This document shows positions 10,701-27,239 of a DNA stretch of 32,000 bases, one piece after another. Source of the stretch: Paenibacillus pinihumi DSM 23905 = JCM 16419 (GTDB taxonomy: Bacteria; Bacillota; Bacilli; Paenibacillales; Paenibacillaceae); the NCBI RefSeq assembly GCF_000422505.1, contig NZ_AULX01000030.1:61328-93327 (forward strand), read 5' to 3'. The position numbers and the translations under genes are program-made. The number at the start of each line of letters is the position of its first letter. Position 1 is the first letter of the stretch. The notes below the pieces were generated by a model. It was not told the DNA's origin. It saw only the letters and a program-made list of their open reading frames with translations, and ran no database searches.

Positions 10701-13700
10701 TTCCAAGATAACATGGGCATTTGTTCCGCCCTGCCCGATCGAGTTTACAGAAGCCCTGAGAGGATGACCTGTTTCCGGGAATTTTTCGGCTTCGCTCCCC
10801 ACATAAAATGGACTGTCGATTAAATCGATATCCAGGTTAGGGACATTAAAATTCAATGTCGGAGGAATCGTTTTATTCTTTAACATAAGAACGGTTTTTA
10901 CAAAGCCTGCAATACCTGAAGTACAATCAAGATGACCAATATTAGTTTTAATAGAACCTATGGCACAAAAAGCTTTCTCCTTCGTATCAAAAGCCTTTGT
11001 GGCAGCTTCTATTTCTATTAAATCGCCCATCCTTGTTCCGGCTCCATGGGTTTCCATGTAACTTATTGAAGTCGCAGGTACCCCGCTTACCTTTAAAGCA
11101 TCCTGGATAACATCAGCTATTCCTTCTACACTGGGAGCATAATAACCGACTTTTCGGTCACCGTCATTATTGACAGCAGATCCTTTGATTACCGCATAAA
11201 TATGATCTTTATCAGCCAGTGCATCCTCTAGCCGTTTCAGGACGACAGCTGCCGAGCCTTTGCCAGGGACAAAACCATCCGCGTCATTATCAAAGGTTTT
11301 ACACTGGCCGTCTTTTGAATAAATCATCCCATCTTCAAAAAGATACCCGCTCTTATCCGGCAGAGGAACGATCGTTACACTTCCCGCCAGAGCCATAGAG
11401 CATTCTGAACGCAATAAGGATTGAGCTGCCGTATGGATCGCGACAAGAGATGTCGAACAGGCGGTATACAAAGATACAGCTGGACCTTTTAAGCCAAGTT
11501 TATAGGCAACAAGCTGGCTCATATAATCTTTATTGCTATAGAGCTCTGTAGTAAATAAACCGATTCTCTCCGCCATTTCCGAAAACATGGATGTCTTTTC
11601 CCAAAACAAATTCGGGGAAGCGCTCGCAAAGATCCCGATAGGTTTAGGATATTTCCCGGGATCATACCCTGCATCTTCAAGTGCTTCCCAGGCAACTTCA
11701 TGAAAAACCCTTACCTGAGGGTCCATGACCGCAGCTTCATTCGGTTTATAACCAAAAAACTCCGGATCGAATAAATCAATCCCTTTCATAACTCCCTGAG
11801 ATTTCACATAGTTCGGATTATTCTGCAGCTTTCTGTCAACGTTTGCCTTATCAAGCTCCTCTTCAGAAAGGACAGAAATTGAATCGACTCCGTCAGCGAG
11901 GTTGTTCCATATTTCATAAATATCAGAGCCGGCAGGAAGACGGCCGGACATCCCTACCACGGCAATGTCATGGGCAGTTCCTTCTTTCGGCTCCATTCGT
12001 TCGCTGATGATAGCGGTTTCAATTCCACCTGAAATCAATTGAGCTTGTTTTCGAATCGTCGTATACTGGAACAACTCTGCGATTTTAATTTTTTTGTCGA
12101 ATGTACTATTGATCTTATTATTCAGCTGAATAAGAATGATCGAATTACCGCCCACATCAAAGAAATTTTCCTCTAGCCCGATCATTTCCCTTCCGAGGAG
12201 TTCTTTCCATATACGCAAAAGTTCTTTTTCGTGATTCGTGTTAGCATCTCTTGAAGGAGTCTCCTGTAATCGGACAGCGTTCATGTTATTTAATTTTTTG
12301 TAATCAATCTTCCCGTTTAAGGTATACGGAATCTCCTCGATCTGCTTAAATTCCGCAGGAATCATATAGTCCGGTAAGTAGCGTGCCAGTTGCTCCCTCA
12401 CGTAAGCGGGGCTCAAGCTGCTATCGGCTTTATAGAAGGCAAGAATTCGCTTCCTGCTGTCATCATATTCATTAACAACGGCAATGCCTTCCTCGATCCC
12501 CCGGATATTACGCAAGTTTGATTCGATCTCTCCCAGCTCGATCCGATATCCCCGGATACTAACCTGATTGTCAATTCGGCCCATGAAATCAATATCGCCA
12601 CCGGGAAGCCATCTGGCCTGATCCCCGGTTCTATAAAGGGTTTTGCCTGCTATAATCTCCGTCGTGAATTTTTCTGCTGTGAGCTCCGGGAGATTTAAAT
12701 AGCCACTGGCGACTCCGAGCCCGGCTATGCATAGCTCTCCGGGAACTCCGATCGGTGCAAGTCTTGATTCGGCATCCACAATAAAAATTTGTGCATTTTC
12801 TATTGGTTTTCCAATAGGGATTTTAGTAGTACCGGCGTCCAAATCTGCACAATTATAAAATGCAGCACAAACGGTGGCTTCCGTCGGTCCGTAAGTATTA
12901 TAAACAGAACAGTCTTGCTTCAATCGGTCGATATATTCATTCTTGAGCACATCGCCGCCGCTGATAAACAGTCTGACATCTTTCAACTTTTCCAGCTTGT
13001 TCAGTTCATTCAGCATCAGCGGCGAGCAGGAAACAATGGATACTTTCCGTTCTCGTATAAACTTATGAACCTCATCGATATCAAGGATATTATCATGATT
13101 CAGTATGGCTACTTCCCCCCCGTTTACCAGGGCAGGGTAGATCTCCTCAATACTCGCATCAAAAGCCAGAGATGCCTGCTGGAGAACAACATCTTCTTTA
13201 TTAACAGCAAACTCTTTCGAGAAACAATTGACATAGGATGCTGCATTTTTATGGCTTACCATAACTCCTTTTGGATTCCCCGAGGTTCCTGAGGTATAGA
13301 TGATGTAACAGCAGCTATTAATATCAATATCAACTTCAATACTGGAATTATCTAAAGCAGTTGAATTTTCAATATGCGTAAGATTAATTATTTTCCCGTC
13401 ATAAACTTTTGTGACCTTTTGAGCCGTTGAACCTGCAGCTATCACGCAGGAAGCCCGGCAGTCATTTAAGATATAACGGAGTCTCTCTTCCGAGGTCAAC
13501 ATATCGATGGGTACATAACAGCATCCAATTTTTTGGACTCCCAACATGGCGGCAACAGCCTTTACTGACTTCGGAAGGAATAAGGCAATTGTACTGCCGG
13601 GAGTAATGCCGCTTTCAGTTAAAGCCCGTGCAATATTATCGCTCATGGAATTCAGTGTTTTATAATCTATCTTCTCATCAGCTGTACTTATAGCCATTTT

Positions 13701-15125
13701 TGCAGGGTAAGTATGAGCGGCCTCTTCAAATTGCCTAACTAGAGGGATAGAGGCATCCAAAGTAAGATCCTCTTTATTAAACTCTTCAAGAATGATCCTC
13801 TTCTCCTGAAGACTGAGCAGACTCAGTTCATCGCAAGTCCCGTTAAGATTAGCCGCAACCTGCTCCAGCATAAATAAAAAGTCTTTGCTCAATCTTTGGA
13901 TAATAACCGGATCTATTGCAGCCTTATCATATGAGAAGGTTATTTCCATAGAGTCAAATAATTCAATTCCGACAATCAAGGGATAATTGGAAAATTCCCA
14001 AGAGGCGAAGGATTTCAGCTGTAATTCGCTATTACTCAACTTCTTCATGTCCACCGGATAATTTTCAATGACCATAATGGAATTGAATAGTTCCCCGCTC
14101 GTATTGCCGTATTTCTTAATATCGACTAATGGCGTCGTACATACTTCCTGCTGTTCACCGATAGCCCGTGTTATCTCTTCAATAACATCCAGTATTTTTT
14201 TATTTGCTGAAAAGTCTATTCTTAACGGAAGCGTATTGATAAAAATTCCGATTGTATCCTCAAAAGATTGTCCGTCTATCCCTCTTGAAGACAGAGTATA
14301 ACCGAGGGTGACTTCCTTATTGTTTTGATACGTCTTCAGCATAGCTCCATACACAAAATAGCAGAAGGATGAAAGGAGGACGTTCCTTTCTTTTAAAAGA
14401 CTTTCGATTCTCTTTTGCAGCTTACTTTCGATGACCATCTTTTCTTCCATATATAATGCTGCTTTATTATCACGGGGGGTAATGAACCAGTTTAATTCAA
14501 CATCATGCCCCTTTAAGTAATTGGTCCAATAGGCCTCTTCTTTCTTTTTATCTTTTCTTACCAGATTTTTTATATAGTCCTGATAAGTCCCCTTGCCTGC
14601 CGGAAATTTAATATTTTCAGGTTCAAGACCGTAAAAACGGAAAAAATCCTTTAACAGGATATATGTACTCCAGCCATCATACAAAATATGGTGATGAGTG
14701 ATAAGCATAAAATGTTTATGCTCATCAAAGGTACACAAGGTTACCCGGAAAGGGACCTCATCCAAAGAAAAAGTATCATTTCTGTCTTTATCCAGAATTT
14801 CAGCATACTCCCGCTCACGATTGTCCGGAGATACCGTGGAGAGGTCAAAAAAACGGATGGGAAGGAGATGCTTCTTCAGGTTAATCTGAATCGGATTATT
14901 CAAACCTTCCCAGCGGAAAAGTGTTCTAAGCATCTCATGTTTCTCAACGATCTTATTCCACACTTTATTAAAAGTGACAGGAGTCATCCGGCCTTCCAAT
15001 TCTATAGCCAATTGGGCATGATATATTTGAGAGGCAGGCTCCATAAGATAGTGAAAAAGCATCCCCTCCTGCACAGGTGTAAGCCGCAATATATTTTCCA
15101 CATTATTCTTATTAAGAATTCTCAT
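7743..15125 (-). CDS. Hybrid NRPS-PKS megasynthase, C-A(Lys-like)-T-KS-(vestigial AT)-KR-ACP, 2460 aa
   Basis: Boundaries: ATG at 15123-15125 with a G-rich SD (aagggggt) ~9 nt upstream; stop TAG at 7743-7745. C: HHHILYDGWS (14673-14696). A: YIIYTSGTSGNPKGV, hand-read code DAESIGTVCK (residues between nt 12309 and 13160). T: GGNSI (Ser at 12141-12143). KS: C1223 in TACSTS (11457-11459), METHGAGT, NIGHLD. AT-like region lacks the nucleophile (GYGDNE at 10125-10142). KR: GVYLVVGGLGGVG ... YSSANIY (~8316-8873). ACP: MGASSL (Ser at 7962-7964). Basic C-terminal tail KDRKQRRLQKRKG. Confidence 0.93.
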   Translation of the reverse strand: MRILNKNNVENILRLTPVQEGMLFHYLMEPASQIYHAQLAIELEGRMTPVTFNKVWNKIVEKHEMLRTLFRWEGLNNPIQINLKKHLLPIRFFDLSTVSPDNREREYAEILDKDRNDTFSLDEVPFRVTLCTFDEHKHFMLITHHHILYDGWSTYILLKDFFRFYGLEPENIKFPAGKGTYQDYIKNLVRKDKKKEEAYWTNYLKGHDVELNWFITPRDNKAALYMEEKMVIESKLQKRIESLLKERNVLLSSFCYFVYGAMLKTYQNNKEVTLGYTLSSRGIDGQSFEDTIGIFINTLPLRIDFSANKKILDVIEEITRAIGEQQEVCTTPLVDIKKYGNTSGELFNSIMVIENYPVDMKKLSNSELQLKSFASWEFSNYPLIVGIELFDSMEITFSYDKAAIDPVIIQRLSKDFLFMLEQVAANLNGTCDELSLLSLQEKRIILEEFNKEDLTLDASIPLVRQFEEAAHTYPAKMAISTADEKIDYKTLNSMSDNIARALTESGITPGSTIALFLPKSVKAVAAMLGVQKIGCCYVPIDMLTSEERLRYILNDCRASCVIAAGSTAQKVTKVYDGKIINLTHIENSTALDNSSIEVDIDINSCCYIIYTSGTSGNPKGVMVSHKNAASYVNCFSKEFAVNKEDVVLQQASLAFDASIEEIYPALVNGGEVAILNHDNILDIDEVHKFIRERKVSIVSCSPLMLNELNKLEKLKDVRLFISGGDVLKNEYIDRLKQDCSVYNTYGPTEATVCAAFYNCADLDAGTTKIPIGKPIENAQIFIVDAESRLAPIGVPGELCIAGLGVASGYLNLPELTAEKFTTEIIAGKTLYRTGDQARWLPGGDIDFMGRIDNQVSIRGYRIELGEIESNLRNIRGIEEGIAVVNEYDDSRKRILAFYKADSSLSPAYVREQLARYLPDYMIPAEFKQIEEIPYTLNGKIDYKKLNNMNAVRLQETPSRDANTNHEKELLRIWKELLGREMIGLEENFFDVGGNSIILIQLNNKINSTFDKKIKIAELFQYTTIRKQAQLISGGIETAIISERMEPKEGTAHDIAVVGMSGRLPAGSDIYEIWNNLADGVDSISVLSEEELDKANVDRKLQNNPNYVKSQGVMKGIDLFDPEFFGYKPNEAAVMDPQVRVFHEVAWEALEDAGYDPGKYPKPIGIFASASPNLFWEKTSMFSEMAERIGLFTTELYSNKDYMSQLVAYKLGLKGPAVSLYTACSTSLVAIHTAAQSLLRSECSMALAGSVTIVPLPDKSGYLFEDGMIYSKDGQCKTFDNDADGFVPGKGSAAVVLKRLEDALADKDHIYAVIKGSAVNNDGDRKVGYYAPSVEGIADVIQDALKVSGVPATSISYMETHGAGTRMGDLIEIEAATKAFDTKEKAFCAIGSIKTNIGHLDCTSGIAGFVKTVLMLKNKTIPPTLNFNVPNLDIDLIDSPFYVGSEAEKFPETGHPLRASVNSIGQGGTNAHVILEEAPSYERRPSQRSNHLILVSAMTEQSLNELTEKYIQFFKANSGLALPDIAYTLQVGRKHFKYRRYVSCRDLSEGIEQLEKTQQAGVADESNGEDAIYFVFGNDTDGVFFKNIDCFFAEPLLKKELEQNILIGDSVSFPGLSEYFAARISNAGEVANEEFNRVIDTIFLYSYAKMFISLGIKPAGVAGYGDNEIIALCLAGVLSFENALEMMKEKGRGLEGYAGDLAVPSIPCWSHKSRNWFSRENDQLPVSFLLQEKGESPVEEFVEWVNQNKKGRAGIMCFAGESVEQEGVTCLNPLETEKDAFNNITGFLWSIGYAVDWEYFCSTEQVSRLSLPTYSFKKESFWLESKTSQALPVENDDSRKSLPDWFYVPVWKQSLLLESTPEKINSGVLVLCEENDFSQGLIEYLNHAGYKVFVVFPGKSFAPAKENSYVLNLGCRSQYKELVTEITRDGNQLDYIINCFGLAAEDNSRQRAAGDINETYFLATVYMTDAIQECNLQNHVKLMNLATNLHRISGGESRVPEKSLVIGASMVAAQEINNLSFQCLELDEKALGNNDSSYRYIEQELRQNSENPMTAYRNEIRWELDYQPLKLEESVKRNGALKEQGVYLVVGGLGGVGFHLCRYLLENYKATVIITGRTELSSDTGESSRDAGAARKAERLKELQSLGSECIYVAAGVHKSEEMEKVFKIIDEKYSSLDGVIFAPTSSDSSLFRSLNELTPDDVNLQFDPKIEGVQVLAELIKTRKPDFCLLMSSISSIVGGLGFAAYSSANIYLDYFAGTRDSSETRWISVNWEGWDIENKETRFDYNNASVTDYFMSIAEGIEAMERVLALRNIPQVAVSSVPLSGRLKKWVYKKDLALNNAASEKQLTLQTMSLREIEESLGAIVRDYFGFAEIKENATFFDMGASSLDVIQLCLNIRKIFNISLTIVELFRYSSVLALAEYLYKLNAPKGADDVKITSEEELSKIKDRKQRRLQKRKG
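9681..10424 (-). other. Vestigial / inactive acyltransferase-like region inside the NRPS-PKS (candidate docking scaffold for a trans-acting AT)
   Basis: Aligned by eye to the intact AT of the neighbouring megasynthase. FPGQGAEY becomes FGNDTDGV. GYSFGE becomes GYGDNE, so the active-site Ser is replaced by Gly (10125-10142). The downstream Arg-containing helix is not conserved, and the region is ~70 aa shorter. Confidence 0.7.
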
Positions 15126-15371: not shown

Positions 15372-15623
15372 TCATTCGTATAAACGGGTCTCAATGTAAG
15401 ATAACAAACTGCTCAAAGTTGACAATTTGGTATACTCAAGATTTTCATCTTCAATTTCAAAATTAAATTCGTTCTCAAGTAATACAATGAGTTTAACAAA
15501 AGCAATAGAATTGATACCATAATTAGTTAGTACATCATCTAACTTGATTTCATCCACATCGGTGGTAAGTTCCATGTTTTCTTTCATAATCCTTCTAATC
15601 TTTGCTTCTGTTGATTCTGACAT
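15372..15623 (-). CDS. Free-standing acyl/peptidyl carrier protein (83 aa)
   Basis: MSESTEAKIRR...NYGINSIAFVKLIVLLE carries a carrier-protein helix-II motif with the Ser in INS. I prefer the ATG at 15621-15623, which has GGAGG 5 nt upstream, over the TTG at 15633-15635 used by the ORF track. Confidence 0.8.
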   Translation of the reverse strand: MSESTEAKIRRIMKENMELTTDVDEIKLDDVLTNYGINSIAFVKLIVLLENEFNFEIEDENLEYTKLSTLSSLLSYIETRLYE

Positions 15624-15641
15624 ATATACCTCCAATAAAAT

Positions 15642-15901: not shown

Positions 15902-17524
15902 TTACAGTAAAACCTTACTTAGGTATTCAGGATTTAGTTTGATCAGGCTTCGAATCAGCGAGTATCGTTTGTTTTGCATTTTACTCATCATTTCCGTCAA
16001 ATACTGGTGATTCAATTCATCATCAATGATTCCTGCAAACAAATTTCTATCGTTAGTGGTTTGAGACATGTTCAACAGCTTGCTATAACAGCTGTAATTC
16101 TTTTTGTTCAAATCAAGGATGAATGCATCAATATAATTCACGAATTCCTGAACCAACAGCTTTGCCGGAATATGTTCATCTCCATCGTAATAATTAAAAA
16201 ACACTGTTAGAAAACACTTGTATCTTGAAAGAGGCTCAAAGATATTTCCAAACATCTTCCTTTTTTCCAAGAAATAATTCTCCAAAAACTCATAAAGATT
16301 TCCAATTCTTTCGTCGGCAAAACGATACCCGATTGCTTCGTCATATTTCGCATCTTCTAGCAATCCATCTTTCTTTGTAGCTTCATACAGTCCCGCTCCT
16401 TTTGAAAGATGCAGCTTACTCAAATGGCCAAAACCACCCAATAAGTTATACTGATTCATAAATTCCATATTCTCATATAATTTGTCGTAGGTGGAATATG
16501 GGTTGAAATTAATGAATCCCATATGGTAATTTATATCGTTCTTTTCGAGATCGTCCAGTAGTTTTCTTGAATCATCGACTGTTACCCCTTTGTTATACAG
16601 CTTCAAATCGTCATCGTTGCCAGCCTCTATCCCAGCAAATACACCAACTAATCCAGCTTTTTTCAGTAGGCCCAGATAGTTATCCGTTGCTTTTTTATAC
16701 ATATCCGCCCGTAAATCCAGCATAAAAAAAATCTTCAAATCCCTGCGCAAGATTTCTTCAGCAAGTTTTACTCCTCTATCTAATGTAGGGATTTCAAAAC
16801 TGCCATCGGCAATCGAGAAGTTAATGATACCAAGATCTCTATTTATCTCTTCCATCTCGTCGACGACCTTTTTGATGCTCCTTCCCCTCCAACCACGAGT
16901 TTCGCCGCCCTTCCAATATTCAGGAATAATGCAAAAGCTGCAATTCATATAACATCCTCTGGAGGTTGACAAATAAGCTTGTTTTAATTTATGTTGCACG
17001 ATAAGGTCCCTACTTGGAAAGGGAAGGATGTCCAGATCAGGAATCAATGTCGCCTGCTCATTCATGATGATTTCACCATCATGATTCCGATACGTCAGCC
17101 CTTTTACCCCGGATGGATCTCCGTCGCAATTTAGGCACTCAAGCAATTCAAAGGTTGTAATTTCGGCTTCTCTTTCTATGGCGTAATCGATATACTCCAG
17201 CTCAGACAGTATTTCACACGAATAATTCAACACAGCTGCTCCTCCAATAAATAGCGTGGTATTCGGCAGCCTGTCATGAAAAACATCAAGCAATTTATAG
17301 CCGTACTTTTTCGTAGGTTCATTAATGCATAATCCCAGAAAATCCGGACGGTAATTAACAATATCATCAATATAGTCCTTATCGACGGTATCATCATCCT
17401 CTTTTATAATGGGGGTAGAGATTTTAACCATGTAACCCTTTTCTCTCAGATAGGATGCAAGGAAACATATTTCCACTTCTTCAGGTTCACCCACAGCACT
17501 TAACAAGACTTTGTTTTTTTTCAT
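15902..17524 (-). CDS. B12 (cobalamin)-binding radical SAM enzyme, class B-like (putative methyltransferase), 540 aa
   Basis: Radical SAM cluster motif CYMNCSFC (CxxxCxxC; C191/C195/C198) at nt 16931-16954. It is preceded by a ~170-aa N-terminal Rossmann-like domain of the kind found in B12-binding radical SAM proteins. SD AAGGAGA lies 9 nt before the ATG at 17522-17524. Confidence 0.85.
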   Translation of the reverse strand: MKKNKVLLSAVGEPEEVEICFLASYLREKGYMVKISTPIIKEDDDTVDKDYIDDIVNYRPDFLGLCINEPTKKYGYKLLDVFHDRLPNTTLFIGGAAVLNYSCEILSELEYIDYAIEREAEITTFELLECLNCDGDPSGVKGLTYRNHDGEIIMNEQATLIPDLDILPFPSRDLIVQHKLKQAYLSTSRGCYMNCSFCIIPEYWKGGETRGWRGRSIKKVVDEMEEINRDLGIINFSIADGSFEIPTLDRGVKLAEEILRRDLKIFFMLDLRADMYKKATDNYLGLLKKAGLVGVFAGIEAGNDDDLKLYNKGVTVDDSRKLLDDLEKNDINYHMGFINFNPYSTYDKLYENMEFMNQYNLLGGFGHLSKLHLSKGAGLYEATKKDGLLEDAKYDEAIGYRFADERIGNLYEFLENYFLEKRKMFGNIFEPLSRYKCFLTVFFNYYDGDEHIPAKLLVQEFVNYIDAFILDLNKKNYSCYSKLLNMSQTTNDRNLFAGIIDDELNHQYLTEMMSKMQNKRYSLIRSLIKLNPEYLSKVLL

Positions 17525-17596
17525 ATATTATTCTCCTTTTTTCATTTTTTTGTAAAAGAAAGAACCGCTTCGGAACTATAGCGGCCAAAGGCGTAA

Positions 17597-17893
17597 AAGT
17601 TATCCTTATACAAAGCCTACAAAGCTTCGTCGCGTCTAGCCAAGGTAGACTGGGCTTTGCAGATACGAGAACTGTTACATGTCCATTATGCACAAGCCAA
17701 GCGAATCCGGCTCGTAATGGACAACTTAAACATGGATACGATTGCATCACTTTATGAGGCATTTCTTCCTTCTGAGGTACTCAGCCTGGCCAAACGCTTG
17801 GAGATCCACTATATATCCAAGCATGACAGTTCAGCAAATATTGCCGAGATCGAACTCAGTGCACTTACGCTGCAATGCTTGACTCGGTCATAG
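17597..17893 (+). pseudogene. IS630-family transposase C-terminal remnant
   Basis: The plus-strand frame reads ..KVDWALQIRELLHVHYAQAKRIRLVMDNLNMDTIASLYEAFLPSEVLSLAKRLEIHYISKHDSSANIAEIELSALTLQCLTRS*. This matches the conserved ..VMDNLNTHxxxSLYEAFxPxEAxxLxxRLEFHYTPKHGSWLNMAEIELSxLxRQCL.. block of one IS630 subgroup, from memory. It is N-terminally truncated by a stop at 17594-17596, and the GSWLN motif is degraded to DSSAN. Confidence 0.7.
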
Positions 17894-17966
17894 GACTAGC
17901 TGCTTTCCAGAAATACCTTATACTGAAACCGTTAATGAAAAACAAAGTATGCTGACCTCTTTAATG

Positions 17967-19865
17967 TTATTCATTAAATTTCTTAAATGACTTTAACATT
18001 TTTTTGAAAATACGCTTTAATACTATAATATCGTCGTCATTATCAACACTATATTCATGCAAATCAGATGCTGAAAAATACAAATCATATTCAGCCAGAG
18101 TTAATTTTTTTTCAACCTGATTTGCATAAATTGAAAAGCACTCATGCTTTCTTGATTTAGGAGTATCTGTAGAAAATTCTGAATGGTTTGTTAAAACAAT
18201 TCTATGCCCGTTTATGTACATAATCTTAATTCTTTTCCTTAAGGCAAAATTCAAAGCTTCTTCAATTGTATTAATTATAGGTTCTCCCTTATCATTTAAG
18301 GATGTATTACATATAATGGGTACCCCGGTAGAAGCATAGTATTTTTTCATACATAAATACAATTTCTCATTCATTTTTTCGTTTAAAGTTTGAACTCTTG
18401 CCGTTTGATCCAAATGAATAATCGCAGGGACAATATCTTTTTTTTCATCTCTCAACACAAAATTATTAAGCATGTATGGGGATTCAAAAGAATCTTTAAA
18501 CCAATTTTCCAATTGTTCATTAAGAATTATTGGGGCCACAGGCCTCCACCATTGTCTATTTTTATATAAATTAAGTAAATCCTTTGAACGCTCCTCTGTA
18601 GCAGTAGCTAATATACTGCGATGTCCCAAAGCACGTGGTCCAATTTCTGCCCTTCCATCAAACCAAATAATGGGGCCATTTGATATATCATCTGCAAAGT
18701 AATCTATTGTATTTTCAATAGAAACAATAAATTTTTTATATTGTTCTTTATGTAATACATTTATATCATCATCCCTATCTCCATAATAGGCATGTTCTAA
18801 TTTGAAATTAATTCTATTGCAATATTTATAAAAATAATACAATCCCATACCTATAGCTTGTCCGCCATCATTAGCAGATGGTACAATTAATTGTTTTTTA
18901 AATCCATATTTATGCATTAAATGAGTGTTAGTTGGACAGTTTAATGCGTATCCGCCTGATAAAGAAATATTTACTTTTGAAGGTTCTAATTTAAATCTCA
19001 TTATAGCTTGGTCTATCGTATTATCAATTTGTTTTATAGAAATTTCTTGAATTATTTTAGCTGCCATGCTAATTTTATTTTCATCTTCTGTAAAACGCTC
19101 ATCAAAAAAATTATACTTATTACCAATATCTTTTTGAGTATAGGAATTAACATGTTGCAAAATTTTATTTATTAATTTTGCAGGGCTATCTTGGAGTGTC
19201 TTATAGATTTCCAACAAATCATCATCATTATAAATTGTTTCTAACGTTGTGCACTGCGTAGCGGTCGCTAATGCCATCAAAGTTCCTTCTTCTAATCCCG
19301 TTTTACTTGCTAATTCTCCCCAATATGGACCTGGTGATGGAACATGAAAAAATTGAATTTTACCTTTTGAACTAAATGCTCCTATATAATCATTTCTTTT
19401 TTCAAAATCTCTATTATCAAGAAGAAAATCAGCTCCACCATCAACTGCTATAGCCAATATGTCTTCATTATAAAAAATATCAGTATCTATCATCAATGAT
19501 GAAAATAAATGCGCCAAAGAATGGTAGGTATACTCCGGGCCTAAATCTTTATCATAATATTTATTTACATTTGATATTATAGGGGTACCAATTATATCTA
19601 CTATATCGTCTATACATAGATCATAGTCACTTAATAACATATTAATAAATTCTATGGCACTTTCTTTATCGTAAAATGATATGGAATGATGTTTGTATCC
19701 TGTGATACGTTCAAATTCCCAATGATGGACCAATTCTAAATTTTCATTTTGTTTTTTCCATAAAGACATATTATGATCATGCCTTAAACAACTTTCATAG
19801 TTGTTCAAATATTTATTAACACAACTATAAATTGATATATAGTATCCATCTTTTAAATTATTCAT
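17967..19865 (-). CDS. Carbamoyltransferase (NodU/CmcH/TobZ family), 632 aa
   Basis: Family motifs: SLSGGYALNCPTN, GPRALGHRSILA, PIICNTSLN. I moved the start to the ATG at 19863-19865 (MNNLKDGYYISIY), which follows AGGAGG. The 28-codon upstream extension in the ORF track has no SD and reads like low-complexity noise. Confidence 0.88.
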   Translation of the reverse strand: MNNLKDGYYISIYSCVNKYLNNYESCLRHDHNMSLWKKQNENLELVHHWEFERITGYKHHSISFYDKESAIEFINMLLSDYDLCIDDIVDIIGTPIISNVNKYYDKDLGPEYTYHSLAHLFSSLMIDTDIFYNEDILAIAVDGGADFLLDNRDFEKRNDYIGAFSSKGKIQFFHVPSPGPYWGELASKTGLEEGTLMALATATQCTTLETIYNDDDLLEIYKTLQDSPAKLINKILQHVNSYTQKDIGNKYNFFDERFTEDENKISMAAKIIQEISIKQIDNTIDQAIMRFKLEPSKVNISLSGGYALNCPTNTHLMHKYGFKKQLIVPSANDGGQAIGMGLYYFYKYCNRINFKLEHAYYGDRDDDINVLHKEQYKKFIVSIENTIDYFADDISNGPIIWFDGRAEIGPRALGHRSILATATEERSKDLLNLYKNRQWWRPVAPIILNEQLENWFKDSFESPYMLNNFVLRDEKKDIVPAIIHLDQTARVQTLNEKMNEKLYLCMKKYYASTGVPIICNTSLNDKGEPIINTIEEALNFALRKRIKIMYINGHRIVLTNHSEFSTDTPKSRKHECFSIYANQVEKKLTLAEYDLYFSASDLHEYSVDNDDDIIVLKRIFKKMLKSFKKFNE

Positions 19866-19976
19866 TAATACAAAAACCTCCTGCGATCTTAATTTTAGTA
19901 AAATGGTTATTTTTGTATTCTTTACAAATAAAATTATTAATGTAATCATTTTTCAATTCCACTCATGATAAGGCCA

Positions 19977-21215: not shown

Positions 21216-22811
21216 CTATTCCTTTGATTTTTTCAATAATGCTAATGCATTGCGGTCAACCTTCCCATTCATCGTTTTTGGGAAACTGTCCATTATAATA
21301 TAATGATTTGGAACCATATAATCAGGAAGAAAATTTCTTAAAAACATTTTCATTTTTTTGTCTGTCAGGCTACTATCTGCAGTTAGTAAATATGCTGTCA
21401 ATACAGGATTGATGCTTTCCACATCCTTTAAAACAACGACACACTGACTAACTGCTTCATGCTCGCAGAGCCTGGCTTCAATTTCTCCAAGTTCAATCCG
21501 AAGTCCCCTGATTTTCACCTGGTTGTCCATCCTCCCCAGGTATTCAATATTACCATTGGGCAACAGACGTGCATAATCCCCAGTCCTGTAAATCCTTGCT
21601 CCTCTACATACCGGACTATCTACAAATCTTTCATCTGACAGCTTGGGCTGGTTCAGGTATCCTCTGGCCAGTCCGACACCGGCAATGCAGAGCTCCCCTT
21701 TTTCCCCGGGCGGCATAAGACCCGATTCCCCCAAAATATACATTGCTGTATTATCGATTGGCTTTCCTATGGGCACCTTGATAATTTCCCCGCTGCCAGG
21801 ACAATCATAGTAAGTTACGTCAACTGTTGCTTCAGTTGGTCCATATAGGTTAGTCAATCTTGTTCCGTTCTTTTGTCCTAATAATGTGTTGAACTTTTTA
21901 ACATGCGCGGGCGTAAGTGCCTCACCGCTGCAAAAAATCTGCCTCAGTGACAAGAGCTTTGCAGTATAGTCCTCACTGCCAATATAATTCAGAAAAGAAT
22001 TGAACATAGAAGGTACAAAATGCAGTGTAGTGATTTTGCTTCGTTCAACTTCTTCAATTATGCCCTGGGGGAATTTCTCAAATCCGGGCTTCAATATACT
22101 TAATTTTGCGCCTGTTATAGACCACCAAAACAGTTCCCATACAGATACATCAAATACAAACGGTGTTTTTTGCATTATTGTATCGTCATGTGTAACAGGG
22201 TATCTTCTTTGCATCCAATTCAACCTGTTAACAACCGAATGATGTTCAACCATAACGCCTTTTGGATTACCGGTTGAACCTGATGTATAAATCACATACA
22301 TTAAATCATTAGGCCTTGCATAATCCGCATAACTGTATTCTGGCAGTTCATAAATATATTCATCGTTAAGATTTATACATTTTGAATGAAATCCGATTAT
22401 TTTATCTATTGTTTTGCTCTGCCCTATTAGACAGCCTGGTTTACTATCAGAAAGTATATACTCCATTCTTTTTTCAGGATAGTCAGGCGAAATGGGCAGG
22501 TAAGCCGCACCGTATTTCAAAATACCATATAGACCAATAATCATTTCCAATGAGCGTTCCATCATTAGACCGATTATTCCATTTTTTTCAACTCCATTTT
22601 GATGAAGAGCATATGCTAATTGCCCTGCCTTTCGGTTCAGTTCACGGTATGTAAGGACCTCTTCACCAAAAATAACTGCTGTTGCGTCGGGTGTTTTTTC
22701 AACCTGCGCTTCAAATAGCTGGCATATCGTTTTATCTTTAGGATACGGAAATACTGTATCATTTAACTGCCTATATATGATATCAATATTGCTTATTTCA
22801 TGGAAATTCAT
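21216..22811 (-). CDS. Free-standing adenylation enzyme with a serine specificity code (seryl-AMP ligase / ACP loader), 531 aa
   Basis: A-domain cores: YVIYTSGSTGNPKGV, NLYGPTE, YRTGD, NGKVDR. Hand-read 10-residue code is DVWHFSLVDK. There is no C or T domain in the ORF. Confidence 0.88.
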   Translation of the reverse strand: MNFHEISNIDIIYRQLNDTVFPYPKDKTICQLFEAQVEKTPDATAVIFGEEVLTYRELNRKAGQLAYALHQNGVEKNGIIGLMMERSLEMIIGLYGILKYGAAYLPISPDYPEKRMEYILSDSKPGCLIGQSKTIDKIIGFHSKCINLNDEYIYELPEYSYADYARPNDLMYVIYTSGSTGNPKGVMVEHHSVVNRLNWMQRRYPVTHDDTIMQKTPFVFDVSVWELFWWSITGAKLSILKPGFEKFPQGIIEEVERSKITTLHFVPSMFNSFLNYIGSEDYTAKLLSLRQIFCSGEALTPAHVKKFNTLLGQKNGTRLTNLYGPTEATVDVTYYDCPGSGEIIKVPIGKPIDNTAMYILGESGLMPPGEKGELCIAGVGLARGYLNQPKLSDERFVDSPVCRGARIYRTGDYARLLPNGNIEYLGRMDNQVKIRGLRIELGEIEARLCEHEAVSQCVVVLKDVESINPVLTAYLLTADSSLTDKKMKMFLRNFLPDYMVPNHYIIMDSFPKTMNGKVDRNALALLKKSKE

Positions 22812-22815
22812 ACTA

Positions 22816-23994
22816 TCATTTACTCCCGAGCCCGGCCTTTATTTCTGAGCTCCTGTACTTTCTTGCAAAGCTGTTTCCTAGTATCATTTCTATAATTTGA
22901 TTACTACCTTCAATAATTTCAAGTGTCTTGGTATCCCTATAATACCTTGCCACTGGGTGGGACTCATTACAGCCCATTGCTCCAAGGATCTGCACGGCAT
23001 TATCTGAATGCTTGCGCGCTGCCTTAGTAGTAAAATATTTGGCGATTATCACCTTTTCAGCCGAACTTGGATGATGATTTTCCTTATCATGGCATGAGTG
23101 TATACATAAATGGGCTGCGGCTTCATAATCCACTCCCATTTTGGTAATCATCTCTTTTATTGTACTATGGGAGATTAACTTTTCCCCAAAGGTTTTCCTT
23201 TTCAAAACATGGCTGGTGCAGTATTCAAGGCAGCCTCTCATAATACCAAGTGCTGTAAATGCAACACTAATGCGTCCGTAATCCAAAGCATACGGAGCTA
23301 TATGTGATAATGCAAAACCGGGTTTTGCAAGTACGTTTTCCTTGCTTATTTCACAATTATCGAATTCCAGCACTGCTAAAGCACTCGCTTTAAAACCAAT
23401 CATGTTTTTGATTTGAACCACATTCAATCCGGGTGCATTCTTCTCTACGATTACTGCAGTTGCTTTTTCATCTTGTCCGTTCATTTTGCCAAAAACAATG
23501 AATACATCCGCCAAGCCTCCAAAAGTAATCCATCTCTTGGTTCCATTTATGATTATCTTGTCCTCTGTCTCGGTAAATGTAGTAGTAATTCCCTGGATAT
23601 CACTTCCGGCTTCCGGCTCTGTCAATGCAAGAGCCCCTAGCACTTTGCCCTGAGTCATGGAGGGCAGCCATTTCTGTTTCTGCTCTTCCGTTCCCCATTT
23701 GAGTATAGATTTCATAACCATGGTGTGTACATTGAATAAACCGCTTAAAGATGTACTGGCTTTGGCTACTACTTCAGTAAATACACCATATGTGAGATGG
23801 TCCCATCCCTGTCCTCCAAACTCTTCCGGCAAAATTCCGCCCATATATCCAGCTTCTGCGCATTTATCAATAACTTCTCTTGGGATACACTCATTTATTT
23901 CCCATTCCCATGCAAACGGCTGGACATTGGATTGGACGAATTTTCCGAATTCAGTGTATTTTTCTTTTTGTTCTCTTGAAAGCAATCCGATCAT
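22816..23994 (-). CDS. Acyl-CoA dehydrogenase family flavoenzyme (FkbI/ZmaE/ZmaI-type, acting on acyl-ACP), 392 aa
   Basis: ACAD motifs: LTEPEAGSD, and YRDTKTLEIIEGSNQI near the C-terminus. The start overlaps the upstream ACP stop as ATGA (23991-23994). Confidence 0.85.
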   Translation of the reverse strand: MIGLLSREQKEKYTEFGKFVQSNVQPFAWEWEINECIPREVIDKCAEAGYMGGILPEEFGGQGWDHLTYGVFTEVVAKASTSLSGLFNVHTMVMKSILKWGTEEQKQKWLPSMTQGKVLGALALTEPEAGSDIQGITTTFTETEDKIIINGTKRWITFGGLADVFIVFGKMNGQDEKATAVIVEKNAPGLNVVQIKNMIGFKASALAVLEFDNCEISKENVLAKPGFALSHIAPYALDYGRISVAFTALGIMRGCLEYCTSHVLKRKTFGEKLISHSTIKEMITKMGVDYEAAAHLCIHSCHDKENHHPSSAEKVIIAKYFTTKAARKHSDNAVQILGAMGCNESHPVARYYRDTKTLEIIEGSNQIIEMILGNSFARKYRSSEIKAGLGSK

Positions 23995-24245
23995 CCCAGA
24001 TCACCAGCCTTCTTTTTGCATACGAATTCAGTAATACTGTTGATACATTTATAATTGTTCATATCTAAATCATTTGTTGTTATTTTAATTTCAAAGTTTT
24101 TCTCTAGAAATGTCATTAATTCGATTGCAAATAAGGAACTTACCAATCCCTCTTCAAAAATATCCATGTCAAAATCAATACGATCAATGTTTACACTATC
24201 CAGAACATATTTATTAATTTTTTCAGCAATTGAGTTGTGTTCCAC
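23991..24245 (-). CDS. Free-standing acyl carrier protein (84 aa)
   Basis: EEGLVSSLFAIELMTFLE carrier-protein motif. GTG start at 24243-24245 with GGGAGG 9 nt upstream. Paralogous to the ACP at 25162-25422. Confidence 0.8.
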   Translation of the reverse strand: MEHNSIAEKINKYVLDSVNIDRIDFDMDIFEEGLVSSLFAIELMTFLEKNFEIKITTNDLDMNNYKCINSITEFVCKKKAGDLG

Positions 24246-24282
24246 AATAACAAACCTCCCAAATATATTGAACTACCTTATT

Positions 24283-25134
24283 TTAATAGTTATAAAAGCC
24301 TTTACCCGTCTTTCTGCCGAGCAAGTTTGCATCAACCATTTTTCTTAGCAGCGGACAGCAGCGAAATTTAGGGTCCTGATAACTTTCATACAATATATCC
24401 AGCGAGTTTACAACCGTATCCAATCCGATCAAATCAGCAGTTTCCAAAGGTCCCATCTTATGCCCGTAGCATTTCGTGAAAATTTCGTCTACTTGGGCTG
24501 GTGTTGCCACATCGTCCTGCACCACAAACGCAGCCTCGTTCATAAATAGATGAGATATCCTGTTTGTAACAAATCCCGGCAAGTCATTTACAAGGATAAC
24601 TTCCTTTTTCATTTGATCAAGTAATGCCTTCGCGTTGTTTATGCACGCTTCTGAAGTGTGATATCCTTTGATTGCTTCAACGCAATTTTTCAAATATGAA
24701 GGATTCATAAAATGTATCCCGATTACTTTGTCTGGACGATCTGTTATACTTGCCACCTTTGTGACAGAGATACAAGAAGTATTGACAGCAAAGTTGACTT
24801 CCGGTTTGCACACTTTTGTCAATTCCCTATAAACAGCTTCCTTCATTTCCCATTTTTCCGGTACATTTTCAATAATGAACTCCGCATTATATACATCTTC
24901 AATGTTAGTAGTAAATGTAATTTTGCTTATTGCCTCTTCAACGTTCAACTTAGGTAACGAAGGATTAGCCAGTGGAGCAAAACGGATAATACGAATGATT
25001 TCAGCTTTTGCCCTTTCAAGGGCCGCTGTGGTAATATCAACAAGTATACAGTTCATTCTATGAAACAGCAGATCAGCAGCTATTCCTATACCCATAGTTC
25101 CGGCACCGATTATACCAATTGTCTTAAATTCCAT
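24283..25134 (-). CDS. 3-hydroxyacyl-CoA dehydrogenase family enzyme (FkbK/ZmaG-type), 283 aa
   Basis: N-terminal Rossmann motif IGIIGAGTMGIGIA. Length and C-terminal dimerisation region (GRKTGKGFY) are typical of 3-hydroxybutyryl-CoA dehydrogenases. SD GGAAGGTGA lies upstream. Confidence 0.87.
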   Translation of the reverse strand: MEFKTIGIIGAGTMGIGIAADLLFHRMNCILVDITTAALERAKAEIIRIIRFAPLANPSLPKLNVEEAISKITFTTNIEDVYNAEFIIENVPEKWEMKEAVYRELTKVCKPEVNFAVNTSCISVTKVASITDRPDKVIGIHFMNPSYLKNCVEAIKGYHTSEACINNAKALLDQMKKEVILVNDLPGFVTNRISHLFMNEAAFVVQDDVATPAQVDEIFTKCYGHKMGPLETADLIGLDTVVNSLDILYESYQDPKFRCCPLLRKMVDANLLGRKTGKGFYNY

Positions 25135-25161
25135 GTTTGATCACCTTCCATAAAATTTATT

Positions 25162-25422
25162 TTAAGAATTATTGGCAGTGCCTGCTTTTTTATTTAAAAA
25201 GCTAATTATGTTATTAACCGATGAAAAATTTGATAATTCCAATTCATCACTGTCAACCGTAATGGAGAATTCGCTTTCAATATAATTCAATAATTTCATT
25301 GCAAAAAGTGAGTTTACAAATCCCATTGAGAAAATATTATCTTCATCAGAAAATATAGTTTCCTCGTCATACCGAATTAAATTATCTTCAATAAACATTC
25401 TAACTTTTTCTTTGTTATCCAT
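25162..25422 (-). CDS. Free-standing acyl carrier protein (86 aa)
   Basis: SMGFVNSLFAMKLLNYIE carrier-protein motif. SD AAGGAG lies 7 nt before the ATG. It sits immediately downstream of the FkbH-like gene. Confidence 0.8.
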   Translation of the reverse strand: MDNKEKVRMFIEDNLIRYDEETIFSDEDNIFSMGFVNSLFAMKLLNYIESEFSITVDSDELELSNFSSVNNIISFLNKKAGTANNS

Positions 25423-25452
25423 AATAGGCTCCTTTTCTTCGGTCCATGTATA

Positions 25453-26529
25453 TTATTTGATTTCAACATTTACATAATGAGGAAATTTTTGGACCATCGA
25501 CAAATCATTTTCAAGAACGGTAATGCCTTCTTCGTTTGTAGATACTTCTTTAAAATTCGCAAATTTATAAGTGACATACATCACTTTGTTTCGATCAGTC
25601 TTTTTAAAATCAGCAAGCAGGATTTTATTTTGGGACTTTGCCATCTGCATAATATAGGATAATAGTATCGTTCCTACTCCCCTTGACATTACTCTGCATG
25701 ACATGAGAAGCAGCTTTAAATGAAGAGCGCTTTCTTTTATTTCCAGCAAAGCCAACCCTATTTTCCCATAAGAACCATAACGGTCAGTAAGCTCACAAAC
25801 TAAAAGTTTATGATCGTCTGAGGTTCTGTAATTATTAAGCTCATCATAGCCGTAAGTATAGCCGGTGGTATTCAGCTGATGGGTCCTTTCAGTCAATTCT
25901 ATCGCTCTTATCAAGTCTTCTTCCTGTGCTTCAGATATAACGAAAGTCATATCTAGAGATGCAAGAAAATTCTCAGGTGCACCATTGAACCGTTCTTCAT
26001 CTTCCCTTCTTTGTTTGTCCTCCATGTACATAAGACGCCGTCTTTGAGCATCTCTAGTGATATATTTATGTTGCAAACGGCTATTGTTGAGTAAAGATTC
26101 ATATTCTAATGCATCCATACATGTAATATCCGGGTGTGCATATTTCACTTCGTCTCTTTCAAAAATCTGATCATCAATAAAAAGTATGGAGTCCATCCCG
26201 ATATTTAAGCTTTTTTGTATATTAGATATGGATATAGACTTCAGATCCCAATTGATTTCAGGAAAAAGAAAATACTCCGATATTCCGAACTCCTCCAACT
26301 TTCGAATAGCGTAATCGAAGCTGTTTTTACTTGCTATGGAATGTAGTATGCCTCTAGTATCCAATTCTCTAATGATTTCAACGATACCGGGCTTTAAAGA
26401 AATATCATCGTTCTCCAATAATACTCCATCCCATAAAGTATTATCCAAATCCCATATAATACATTTTATCTCTTTATTCAAAATATCTACCTCTCTTATT
26501 TTATTTATGCTCAATATTCGTTTATTCAT
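25453..26529 (-). CDS. FkbH-like HAD-family phosphatase/acyltransferase (glyceryl-ACP forming), 358 aa
   Basis: HAD motif I DLDNT at 26437-26451 (IIWDLDNTLWDG). The C-terminal MSCRVMSRGVG motif is one I associate with FkbH/OzmB/ZmaN-type enzymes. The start overlaps the thioesterase stop (TAATG at 26527-26531). Confidence 0.85.
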   Translation of the reverse strand: MNKRILSINKIREVDILNKEIKCIIWDLDNTLWDGVLLENDDISLKPGIVEIIRELDTRGILHSIASKNSFDYAIRKLEEFGISEYFLFPEINWDLKSISISNIQKSLNIGMDSILFIDDQIFERDEVKYAHPDITCMDALEYESLLNNSRLQHKYITRDAQRRRLMYMEDKQRREDEERFNGAPENFLASLDMTFVISEAQEEDLIRAIELTERTHQLNTTGYTYGYDELNNYRTSDDHKLLVCELTDRYGSYGKIGLALLEIKESALHLKLLLMSCRVMSRGVGTILLSYIMQMAKSQNKILLADFKKTDRNKVMYVTYKFANFKEVSTNEEGITVLENDLSMVQKFPHYVNVEIK

Positions 26530-27239
26530 TAAGCATAGGGCATTAATACATCATTGATTACTTTCACAACATCCTCAACGTCCTCATTAATAAAGAAATG
26601 CCCCCCTTCAAATTTGTAAATCCTGCATTTGCCTGTAGTACAGGTCTGCCACAGCTCTAAAGATTTATCTTCCATATCCTTATCCTTCTTACCGCTTAAT
26701 ACGGATATGTCAAAATCAAATTTCAAATGATTCTTTAAACAATTATAGGTTTCTACTATCTTATAATCATCCCTTATAATCGGAATGAAGGTTTTAATAA
26801 ATTCATCATTTTCCAGTAATTGTTCAGGTGTTCCTCCATTCTCTTTCAGCTCTTCTATAAACATCTCTAATGGTGCATCATGAAGGTTAAACTGATTCTT
26901 TTTTTCAAAAGGAGGATAACGTCCGGAAAAAAAGACATGTTCAGGATTATGCAAACCTTCAGCTCTAAGTTTATGAACAAGTTCATAGGCAATTATACTC
27001 CCCATGCTATGTCCGAAAATTGCATATTCCGAATCTTGCATCCAGGGTCTGACCATCTCATAAACATCATTTACAGCTTCATCCATATTTTCATATCGGG
27101 GTTCTGTAAATCTTCTCCCCCTTCCGGCGAGCTCAACAGGGTGAAGCTCTATTGAATCATTTAAATAACCTATCCAGCTTCTATAAGCCTGAATACCACC
27201 ACCGGCATACGGTATACAAATCAATTTTATTTTCCTCAT
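26529..27239 (-). CDS. Type II thioesterase (editing TE), 236 aa
   Basis: GHSMGS (GxSxG) and C-terminal GGHFF. Size and motif spacing are typical of NRPS/PKS-associated TEII enzymes. Confidence 0.88.
   Translation of the reverse strand: MRKIKLICIPYAGGGIQAYRSWIGYLNDSIELHPVELAGRGRRFTEPRYENMDEAVNDVYEMVRPWMQDSEYAIFGHSMGSIIAYELVHKLRAEGLHNPEHVFFSGRYPPFEKKNQFNLHDAPLEMFIEELKENGGTPEQLLENDEFIKTFIPIIRDDYKIVETYNCLKNHLKFDFDISVLSGKKDKDMEDKSLELWQTCTTGKCRIYKFEGGHFFINEDVEDVVKVINDVLMPYA

Follow-up and report, generated by a model that had tools for sequence, protein, structure and literature searches.

The gene cassette described here lies on the minus strand, at positions 21216–26529, of a 32-kb stretch of DNA from Paenibacillus pinihumi DSM 23905 / JCM 16419, the whole of which is referred to as the window. 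We propose, with about even confidence, that it forms the extender-unit subcluster within an uncharacterised zwittermicin-like nonribosomal peptide synthetase (NRPS)-polyketide synthase (PKS) cluster, in which a single ZmaI-type acyl-CoA dehydrogenase (ACAD) serves the two branches leading to hydroxymalonyl- and aminomalonyl-acyl carrier protein (ACP). From sequence comparison we infer that this one flavoenzyme most likely works on either ACP and tolerates either C2 substituent. At least seven clusters, which come from three lineages (Paenibacillus, Clostridia and Chloroflexia), share the same conserved one-ACAD cassette.

A preliminary description of this DNA had listed six genes in the region, coding for an FkbH-type protein, an ACP (ACP1), a 3-hydroxyacyl-CoA dehydrogenase (HADH), a second ACP (ACP2), an ACAD and a stand-alone adenylation (A) enzyme with a serine code. 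Pfam and NCBIfam, from which all domain calls were taken, bear out each of these assignments on the minus strand. Three further points of that description also hold: the stop codon of ACP2 and the start codon of the ACAD overlap as ATGA (23994–23991), the two ACPs are paralogous (28–39% identical), and the A enzyme carries the serine code, its ten residues reading DVWHFSLVDK against DVWHFSLIDK in ZmaJ in an alignment anchored on the standard motifs. Good ribosome-binding sites were found before ACP1 (aaaaggag) and before the HADH gene.

The six cassette genes are one-to-one orthologues of ZmaN, ZmaD, ZmaG, ZmaH, ZmaI and ZmaJ of the zwittermicin A cluster, with 50–61% identity at the protein level. 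FkbH is 61% identical to ZmaN and 65% to FkbH of Brevibacillus laterosporus, and its DLDNT and MSCRV motifs are invariant in the alignment with both. ACP1, at 57% identity to ZmaD versus 39% to ZmaH, could be aligned with 27 ZmaD-type ACPs, and the serine of its GFVNSLFAM motif is conserved; ACP2 shows the converse, with 54% identity to ZmaH versus 40% to ZmaD. The HADH is 60% identical to ZmaG and the A enzyme 50% identical to ZmaJ. The ACAD is 53% identical to ZmaI versus 35% to ZmaE, with bit scores of 814 against itself, 449 against ZmaI and 260–278 against ZmaE-type proteins. FkbI (1r2j) is among its PDB matches, and the segment IEGSNQ, whose glutamate we take to be the catalytic base, is kept across all the aligned ACADs. 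Since the orthology is one-to-one and the ACAD is of the ZmaI type, the enzyme that is absent is specifically ZmaE, the ACAD of the hydroxymalonyl branch.

Set against the two pathways, the aminomalonyl one is represented in a single operon by the serine-code A enzyme, the ZmaH-type ACP, the HADH and the ZmaI-type ACAD. For the hydroxymalonyl one we found FkbH with the DxDxT and MSCRV motifs, a ZmaD-type ACP, a ZmaG/FkbK-type HADH and a GYSFG-type acyltransferase (AT), but no acyl-ACP dehydrogenase of the ZmaE/FkbI type in the window, 6 kb upstream or 10 kb downstream. In a neighbour-joining tree calculated with no bootstrap, the HADHs of combined cassettes, including that of the window, stand beside those of aminomalonyl-only cassettes and apart from those of plain hydroxymalonyl cassettes.

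The window was searched by six-frame tblastn with ZmaE, its B. laterosporus counterpart and the window ACAD as queries, and a single ACAD region was found. As the preliminary description had suggested, the search was carried into the flanks, where a second ACAD was found neither in the 6.3 kb upstream, which reach the cluster edge (locus L006), nor in the 10 kb downstream (L007) and the first kilobase of the following gene. No methyltransferase family scored above threshold in any open reading frame (ORF) of the window or flanks, FkbG-like enzymes included, and the PKS linker regions contained none even at E≤1. A match of Methyltransf_31 to the HADH (22 bits versus a cut-off of 27) was dismissed as Rossmann-fold noise, which leaves a B12-dependent radical SAM protein as the only methylase-like enzyme of the window. 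The claim of one ACAD and no O-methyltransferase thus stands over about 48 kb around the cassette and, with no O-methyltransferase, the first unit would stay hydroxymalonyl. P. pinihumi did not appear among the listed matches (at least 120, the 120th still scoring 641 bits) to an eight-sequence profile of ZmaE-type proteins, but neither did P. amylolyticus, itself a member of the query, so that this absence carries no weight.

Based upon these assignments, FkbH would load a glyceryl unit from 1,3-bisphosphoglycerate onto ACP1, the HADH would oxidize the C3 hydroxyl of this unit to an aldehyde, and the single ZmaI-type flavoenzyme would, in the step that is central to our proposal, convert the aldehyde to the carboxylate to give hydroxymalonyl-ACP1. 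This unit would then be taken up by the ZmaA-type cis-AT (GYSFG) of the 2576-aa synthase. In the other branch the A enzyme would transfer L-serine to ACP2, the HADH and ACAD of the first branch would turn seryl-ACP2 into aminomalonyl-ACP2, and the ZmaF-family trans-AT would deliver the aminomalonyl unit to ketosynthase (KS) modules that have no AT of their own. Because a KS needs a carboxylated extender, both carriers should end as malonyl-type units. Sharing of an oxidase has a precedent in zwittermicin, where one HADH, the predicted-promiscuous ZmaG, is assigned to both branches (PMC6395733), so the use of one HADH by two carriers is not new here. The preliminary description held that both units are made, each on its own ACP; the one-to-one orthology to the Zma proteins and the presence of two types of AT favour this, whereas the sharing of one ACAD is still a proposal.

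The ATs were compared with the diagnostic motifs reported for the AT of ZmaA (hydroxymalonyl-ACP; GYSFG / MCM / GAAH), for ZmaF (aminomalonyl-ACP; GYSLG / IAI / GPFH) and for the AT of ZmaK (malonyl-CoA; GHSIG / HAFH) (PMC4207774). The cis-AT is closest to the ZmaA AT, at 39% identity versus 31–33% to malonyl-CoA ATs, and has the hydrophobic residues FCF where the arginines of RXR otherwise stand; by its motifs it is of the type predicted to take ACP-linked extender units. The free-standing trans-AT is 39% identical to ZmaF and 40% to the B. laterosporus AT, and 43–46% identical to them over its core (43% to ZmaF). With 409 amino acids it is close in length to ZmaF (405) and extends well past the AT-domain match. 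Its motifs read GHSLG / GAIVY / GPFH, as compared with GYSLG / GGIAI / GPFH in ZmaF, hydrophobic residues again replacing RXR. Since the ATs of the aminomalonyl-only cassettes of P. macquariensis and Clostridium cavendishii also read GHSLG/GAIVYPL, the histidine is no argument against the transfer of aminomalonyl units. GHSLG occurs throughout the Paenibacillus and clostridial one-ACAD clusters (the window, L017, L022, L088, L090 and L091), and GYSLG in ZmaF, in the B. laterosporus AT and in the AT of a Chloroflexia metagenome-assembled genome (MAG).

Two visible KS modules have no AT and therefore need one in trans. The first PKS module, in the 2460-aa protein, retains a dead AT remnant (residues 1653–1691, approximately 10053–10169 of the window) which in an alignment made by eye reads GYGDNE at the active-site motif GHSLGE, the serine being lost; the equivalent module has an intact malonyl-CoA AT in ZmaK and in B. 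laterosporus. With two AT-less modules to serve, the trans-AT might handle more than one extender unit. The presence of a ZmaA-type cis-AT together with a ZmaF-family trans-AT means that both units are probably used, and the predicted architecture fits the use of both ACP-linked units. The A domains of the assembly line have the codes DAESIGTVCK, DFWNIGMVHK and DFWNLGLVHK, which read as Lys-like and Thr-type. That of the starter NRPS is DLTKVGEVGK, which we take to be an Asn-type code. From this starter and the peptidase of the beta-lactamase fold fused to an ABC exporter, the cluster is apparently of the N-acyl-D-Asn prodrug type.

To see how widely the arrangement occurs, one genome per species from 185,579 species was scanned with an FkbH alignment as query, and 80 of 113 relatives were kept. 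P. pinihumi itself is not in this set, and the best match to FkbH was 66%. The ORFs of each locus were classed against Zma, B. laterosporus and window references. Most of the 80 loci are plain hydroxymalonyl cassettes with the order HADH-FkbH-ACP-ZmaE-type ACAD. The combined layout, with a ZmaI-type enzyme as the only ACAD within 10 kb on either side, was found in Ruminiclostridium papyrosolvens C7 (L022) and in two MAGs, one from Bacillota (L017) and one from Chloroflexia (L060), the AT of the latter having moved. A search for homologues of the window ACAD added P. amylolyticus (CP194939; 79% identity; L088) and two Logan assemblies, SRR13358361 (L090) and SRR28201140 (L091); two more matches of the ZmaI type lie in aminomalonyl-only cassettes that have no FkbH (L092, L093). 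The shared layout, FkbH-ACP-HADH-ACP-ACAD-A-AT, thus occurs in six places besides the window, and tblastn gave exactly one ACAD region in each. In P. amylolyticus and the two Logan relatives the peptidase-ABC exporter gene also precedes the cassette. The plasmid collection yielded the two-ACAD form only, from the B. cereus group and B. laterosporus, and these are the sole organisms in which we met that form. The single ACAD, which the preliminary description had called unusual, is so by comparison with zwittermicin and B. laterosporus, each with two ACADs, and is the conserved state among the at least seven related clusters.

The gene order of the one-ACAD cassette is what results when FkbH-ACP is added ahead of the four genes of an aminomalonyl-only one (HADH-ACP-ACAD-A). 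The ratio dN/dS for FkbH was 0.10 between P. pinihumi and P. amylolyticus and 0.07 between L017 and L090; for ACP1 it was 0.12, and the other cassette genes span 0.03–0.14. FkbH and ACP1 are therefore under purifying selection, and the glyceryl branch is not decaying.

The closest characterised relative is the zwittermicin A cluster of B. cereus, in which hydroxymalonyl-ACP is made by ZmaN, ZmaD, ZmaG and ZmaE, and aminomalonyl-ACP by ZmaJ, ZmaH, ZmaG and ZmaI. The HADH-ACP-ACAD-A genes of the window are collinear with zmaG-H-I-J and align with them at 67% in DNA (blastn, B. cereus group plasmids). Common to both clusters are one HADH for two carriers, the ZmaF-family trans-AT, the ZmaA-type cis-AT, the ClbP/ZmaM-like peptidase-ABC exporter and an NRPS starter with an Asn-type code. 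Unlike zwittermicin, the window has no ZmaE orthologue, and FkbH and ACP1 stand directly before the cassette instead of being scattered. Its A codes read Lys-like or Thr-type rather than Ser, its first PKS module lacks the malonyl-CoA AT found in ZmaK, and it has two AT-less KS modules among at least four KS genes or modules, as well as the B12-radical SAM enzyme and an extra carrier protein. No homologue of ZmaL or ZmaR was found in the stretch examined. The differing A codes, module order and tailoring genes indicate that the product is not zwittermicin A.

No locus of the plasmid collection matched the cassette DNA better than that of Brevibacillus laterosporus B9 (NZ_CP011076.1, unannotated), with 65.5% identity across 67% of the query. 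Its order is FkbH-ACAD-ACP-AT-HADH-ACP-ACAD-A, and the six cassette orthologues are 55–65% identical in protein sequence. It differs from the window in having a ZmaE-type ACAD between FkbH and the first ACP, hence two ACADs, in the GYSLG motif of its AT, and in megasynthases with ZmaK-like and ZmaA-like cis-ATs. The aminomalonyl-only cassettes of P. macquariensis and C. cavendishii, which presumably correspond to the colibactin type (ClbD/E/F plus ClbH-A1), have the order HADH-ACP-ACAD-A, which matches the last four genes of the window cassette, followed by the AT; their ACADs are 57–58% identical to that of the window, and they have no FkbH and no second ACP. With the plain hydroxymalonyl or methoxymalonyl cassettes (FkbH/FkbJ/FkbK/FkbI with or without FkbG) the window shares FkbH, a ZmaD-type ACP and an HADH and, as in the hydroxymalonyl producers, there is no FkbG. 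These cassettes possess a ZmaE/FkbI-type ACAD and an HADH from another branch of the tree, and the window has neither.

Several observations weigh against the sharing of one ACAD. D-glycerate- and L-serine-derived intermediates have opposite configurations at C2. No sign of adaptation was seen in the ACADs: at 16 positions that discriminate ZmaE from ZmaI, the single-copy enzymes keep the ZmaI state at all but one. The lone position that is in the ZmaE state in most of them was rejected as the trace of a dual-purpose enzyme, for it is missing in the window protein. The ACP1 proteins of one-ACAD cassettes resemble ordinary ZmaD-type ACPs, and adaptation of ACP1 to a ZmaI-type partner was likewise rejected, the one weak column (N to D) being missing in the window ACP1. 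Nor is the identity between ACP1 and ACP2 of the same cassette above that in zwittermicin. ZmaE and ZmaI of B. cereus are called orthogonal in PMC6395733, and PMC4207774 has the B. cereus enzymes as too specific for hybrid precursors. Finally, the cluster runs on downstream past the stretch examined, with at least one further KS gene.

The last two of these considerations would be accommodated if a ZmaE/FkbI-type dehydrogenase encoded elsewhere, further downstream in the cluster or in another FkbH cassette, completed the hydroxymalonyl branch in trans and the cassette ACAD served aminomalonyl only. We consider this possible, though on the whole unlikely. Extender-unit genes can scatter, zmaN lying about 18 kb from zmaE in zwittermicin, and in Paenibacillus sp. 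SC116 one contig carries both a ZmaE-type ACAD and an FkbH locus with none within 10 kb, which makes such a gene elsewhere plausible. Plain HADH-FkbH-ACP-ACAD cassettes are also common in Paenibacillus, including another strain of P. amylolyticus (L021), and the next KS gene opens only 30 bp past the 3326-aa synthase. On the other hand, the same enzyme is missing in seven clusters that keep all the other extender-unit genes in one tight operon, and the 48 kb around the cassette hold no further ACAD. Genomes with two cassettes appear twice among the results of the species scan, whereas R. papyrosolvens C7 and the two MAGs (Bacillota, Chloroflexia) have one FkbH locus apiece among the 80 of 113 relatives kept.

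It is unlikely, in our estimate, that the glyceryl branch operates with no ACAD at all, the HADH or another oxidase carrying out both oxidations, or glyceryl- or 2-hydroxy-3-oxopropionyl-ACP being used in some other way. The narrower version, in which the shared HADH performs both oxidations or the synthase takes a non-carboxylated C3 unit, we regard as distinctly unlikely. Such a branch would find company in the 14 of 86 FkbH or ZmaI-type-ACAD loci that have no ACAD within about 10 kb, several of which have an HADH beside FkbH (L043, L059, L012 and L023/L025). Absence within 10 kb is weak evidence, since some loci lie on short contigs or have split layouts like that of zwittermicin (L029, L032), and a ZmaA-type cis-AT in a normal KS-ketoreductase (KR)-ACP module implies that the extender is carboxylated. 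Formation of hydroxymalonyl-ACP, moreover, is accepted to take four genes, one of them for the ACAD (PMC5355916). The narrower version, if true, would open a route to hydroxymalonyl-ACP, or one that bypasses it, that is new, and the loci with an HADH beside FkbH would be instances of the same phenomenon. Very improbable is a non-functional FkbH-ACP1 leftover, a single ACAD being enough for the one branch still working. The thought arises solely from the missing ZmaE-type enzyme, although the lack of antibacterial activity of P. pinihumi in one screen (PMC11210098) would agree with it. FkbH and ACP1 are intact, with invariant DLDNT and MSCRV motifs, they are under purifying selection equal to that on their neighbours and conserved in seven clusters, and a matching ZmaA-type cis-AT is present.

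One ZmaI-type ACAD for both branches is, in our view, the most economical reading. Through hydroxymalonyl- and aminomalonyl-ACP a polyketide backbone gains a free hydroxyl or a free amino group, and in the literature searched the two units together have been described for zwittermicin A only, each branch with its own flavoenzyme. What is new here is a leaner combined cassette, conserved among uncharacterised clusters of Paenibacillus, Clostridia and Chloroflexia that resemble the zwittermicin one and seem to be of the prodrug type; the surprise is moderate, as the sharing of the HADH was already part of the zwittermicin scheme. That a one-flavoenzyme cassette is kept in several phyla suggests a ZmaI-type enzyme that is less strict in its choice of carrier and substrate. 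Such an enzyme would provide a minimal six-gene toolkit for PKS engineering and a handle on the specificity determinants of the FkbI/ZmaE/ZmaI enzymes.

Loci with an HADH beside FkbH and no ACAD of any type within about 10 kb were seen in several arrangements. The order is HADH-ACP-FkbH-AT in Lysinibacillus (L043), AT-HADH-ACP-FkbH in an Anaerolineae MAG (L059), and FkbH-HADH followed by an NRPS in the P. alvei type (L023/L025); L012 is a further example. In these loci the ACAD is either far away or dispensable.

The large ORFs of the window are all on the minus strand and form a single operon-like array (Table 1). The assigned genes account for the whole of it, with no unassigned stretch, and an Rfam scan of the window gave no match. 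WP_028560601 and WP_028560603 are among the accessions of the window proteins (exact-sequence matches, P. pinihumi).

Table 1. Genes and domains assigned in the 32-kb P. pinihumi window (C, condensation; PCP, peptidyl carrier protein)
Feature	Position	Strand	Evidence
Starter NRPS, 3' part of 1506-aa protein (C-A-PCP-C)	30422..32000	-	Condensation domain; full protein read in upstream flank
Beta-lactamase-fold (ClbP/ZmaM-like) peptidase fused to ABC exporter, 1036 aa	27281..30391	-	Beta-lactamase E 7e-68; ABC_tran E 5e-23
Type II thioesterase	26529..27239	-	Thioesterase E 1.6e-45
FkbH-type putative glyceryl-ACP synthase (ZmaN orthologue)	25453..26529	-	TIGR01686, 252 bits vs cut-off 147
ACP1, putative glyceryl/hydroxymalonyl-branch carrier (ZmaD orthologue)	25162..25422	-	PP-binding
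HADH (ZmaG orthologue), putative shared first oxidase	24283..25134	-	3HCDH_N E 2e-46; 3HCDH E 7e-32
ACP2, putative seryl/aminomalonyl-branch carrier (ZmaH orthologue)	23991..24245	-	PP-binding
ACAD, ZmaI type	22816..23994	-	Three ACAD Pfam domains, E 1e-34 to 1e-21
Stand-alone A enzyme, Ser code (ZmaJ orthologue)	21216..22811	-	AMP-binding E 2e-90, plus AMP-binding_C
Free-standing AT, ZmaF family, 409 aa	19977..21206	-	Acyl_transf_1, residues 11-290; ~110 residues beyond match
Carbamoyltransferase (tailoring)	17967..19949	-	Carbam_trans_C E 2.8e-52
B12-binding radical SAM enzyme	15902..17524	-	Radical_SAM and B12-binding; NCBIfam class-B radical SAM methylase families
Third free-standing carrier protein, beside radical SAM gene	15372..15635	-	PP-binding E 1e-11
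NRPS-PKS, 2460 aa, C-A-PCP-KS-(dead AT remnant)-KR-ACP	7743..15125	-	Pfam; A code DAESIGTVCK
PKS-NRPS, complete at 2576 aa, KS-AT-KR-ACP-C-A-PCP	1..7731	-	Pfam; A code DFWNIGMVHK
cis-AT domain of 2576-aa PKS-NRPS, ZmaA-AT-like	5245..6120	-	Motifs GYSFG / FCF / FASH

Upstream, the cluster starts with the 1506-aa NRPS; its edge is marked by a NusG paralogue and a ROK gene that lie before this NRPS. The 181-aa NusG paralogue lies directly 5' of the first NRPS gene (L006, 1469–2014), approximately 4.3–4.8 kb past the high end of the window, and presumably resembles the LoaP-type antiterminators that precede long PKS operons. Downstream of the window there is a 3326-aa protein with the domains KS-(degenerate KR)-KR-ACP-C-C-A-PCP, and the KS gene that follows its stop codon was seen at 3010–3990 of L094. 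With this gene there are at least four KS modules, and the assembly line is longer than that of zwittermicin.

The G+C content of the window is 29–35% at the carbamoyltransferase and at the peptidase-ABC/NRPS end, about 39% in the cassette and 42–45% in the megasynthases. Together with the clostridial origin of the closest relatives outside Paenibacillus, this unevenness suggests that the cluster is a mosaic acquired by horizontal transfer. A fragment of an IS630-type (DDE_3) transposase, under the Pfam cut-off (E 1e-5), was noticed in an ORF at 17657–17890 on the plus strand; it sits in the 440-nucleotide gap (17525–17966) between the carbamoyltransferase and radical SAM genes, on the strand opposite to theirs.

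The radical SAM enzyme is a probable C-methyltransferase, judged from its family matches, and not an O-methyltransferase of the FkbG type. With the third carrier protein, which is 25–27% identical to ACP1-type carriers, it may C-methylate a carrier-bound unit. Both are missing in the closest relatives. In P. amylolyticus and in SRR28201140 the place after the AT is taken by two APH-family kinases instead of the carbamoyltransferase, radical SAM enzyme and carrier protein, and it looks like an exchangeable tailoring slot.

A literature search gave no paper describing the P. pinihumi cluster and none mentioning aminomalonyl units in Paenibacillus. In the mining paper that reported the activity screen, P. 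pinihumi is credited with 26 biosynthetic gene clusters, nearly all of them unknown (PMC11210098).

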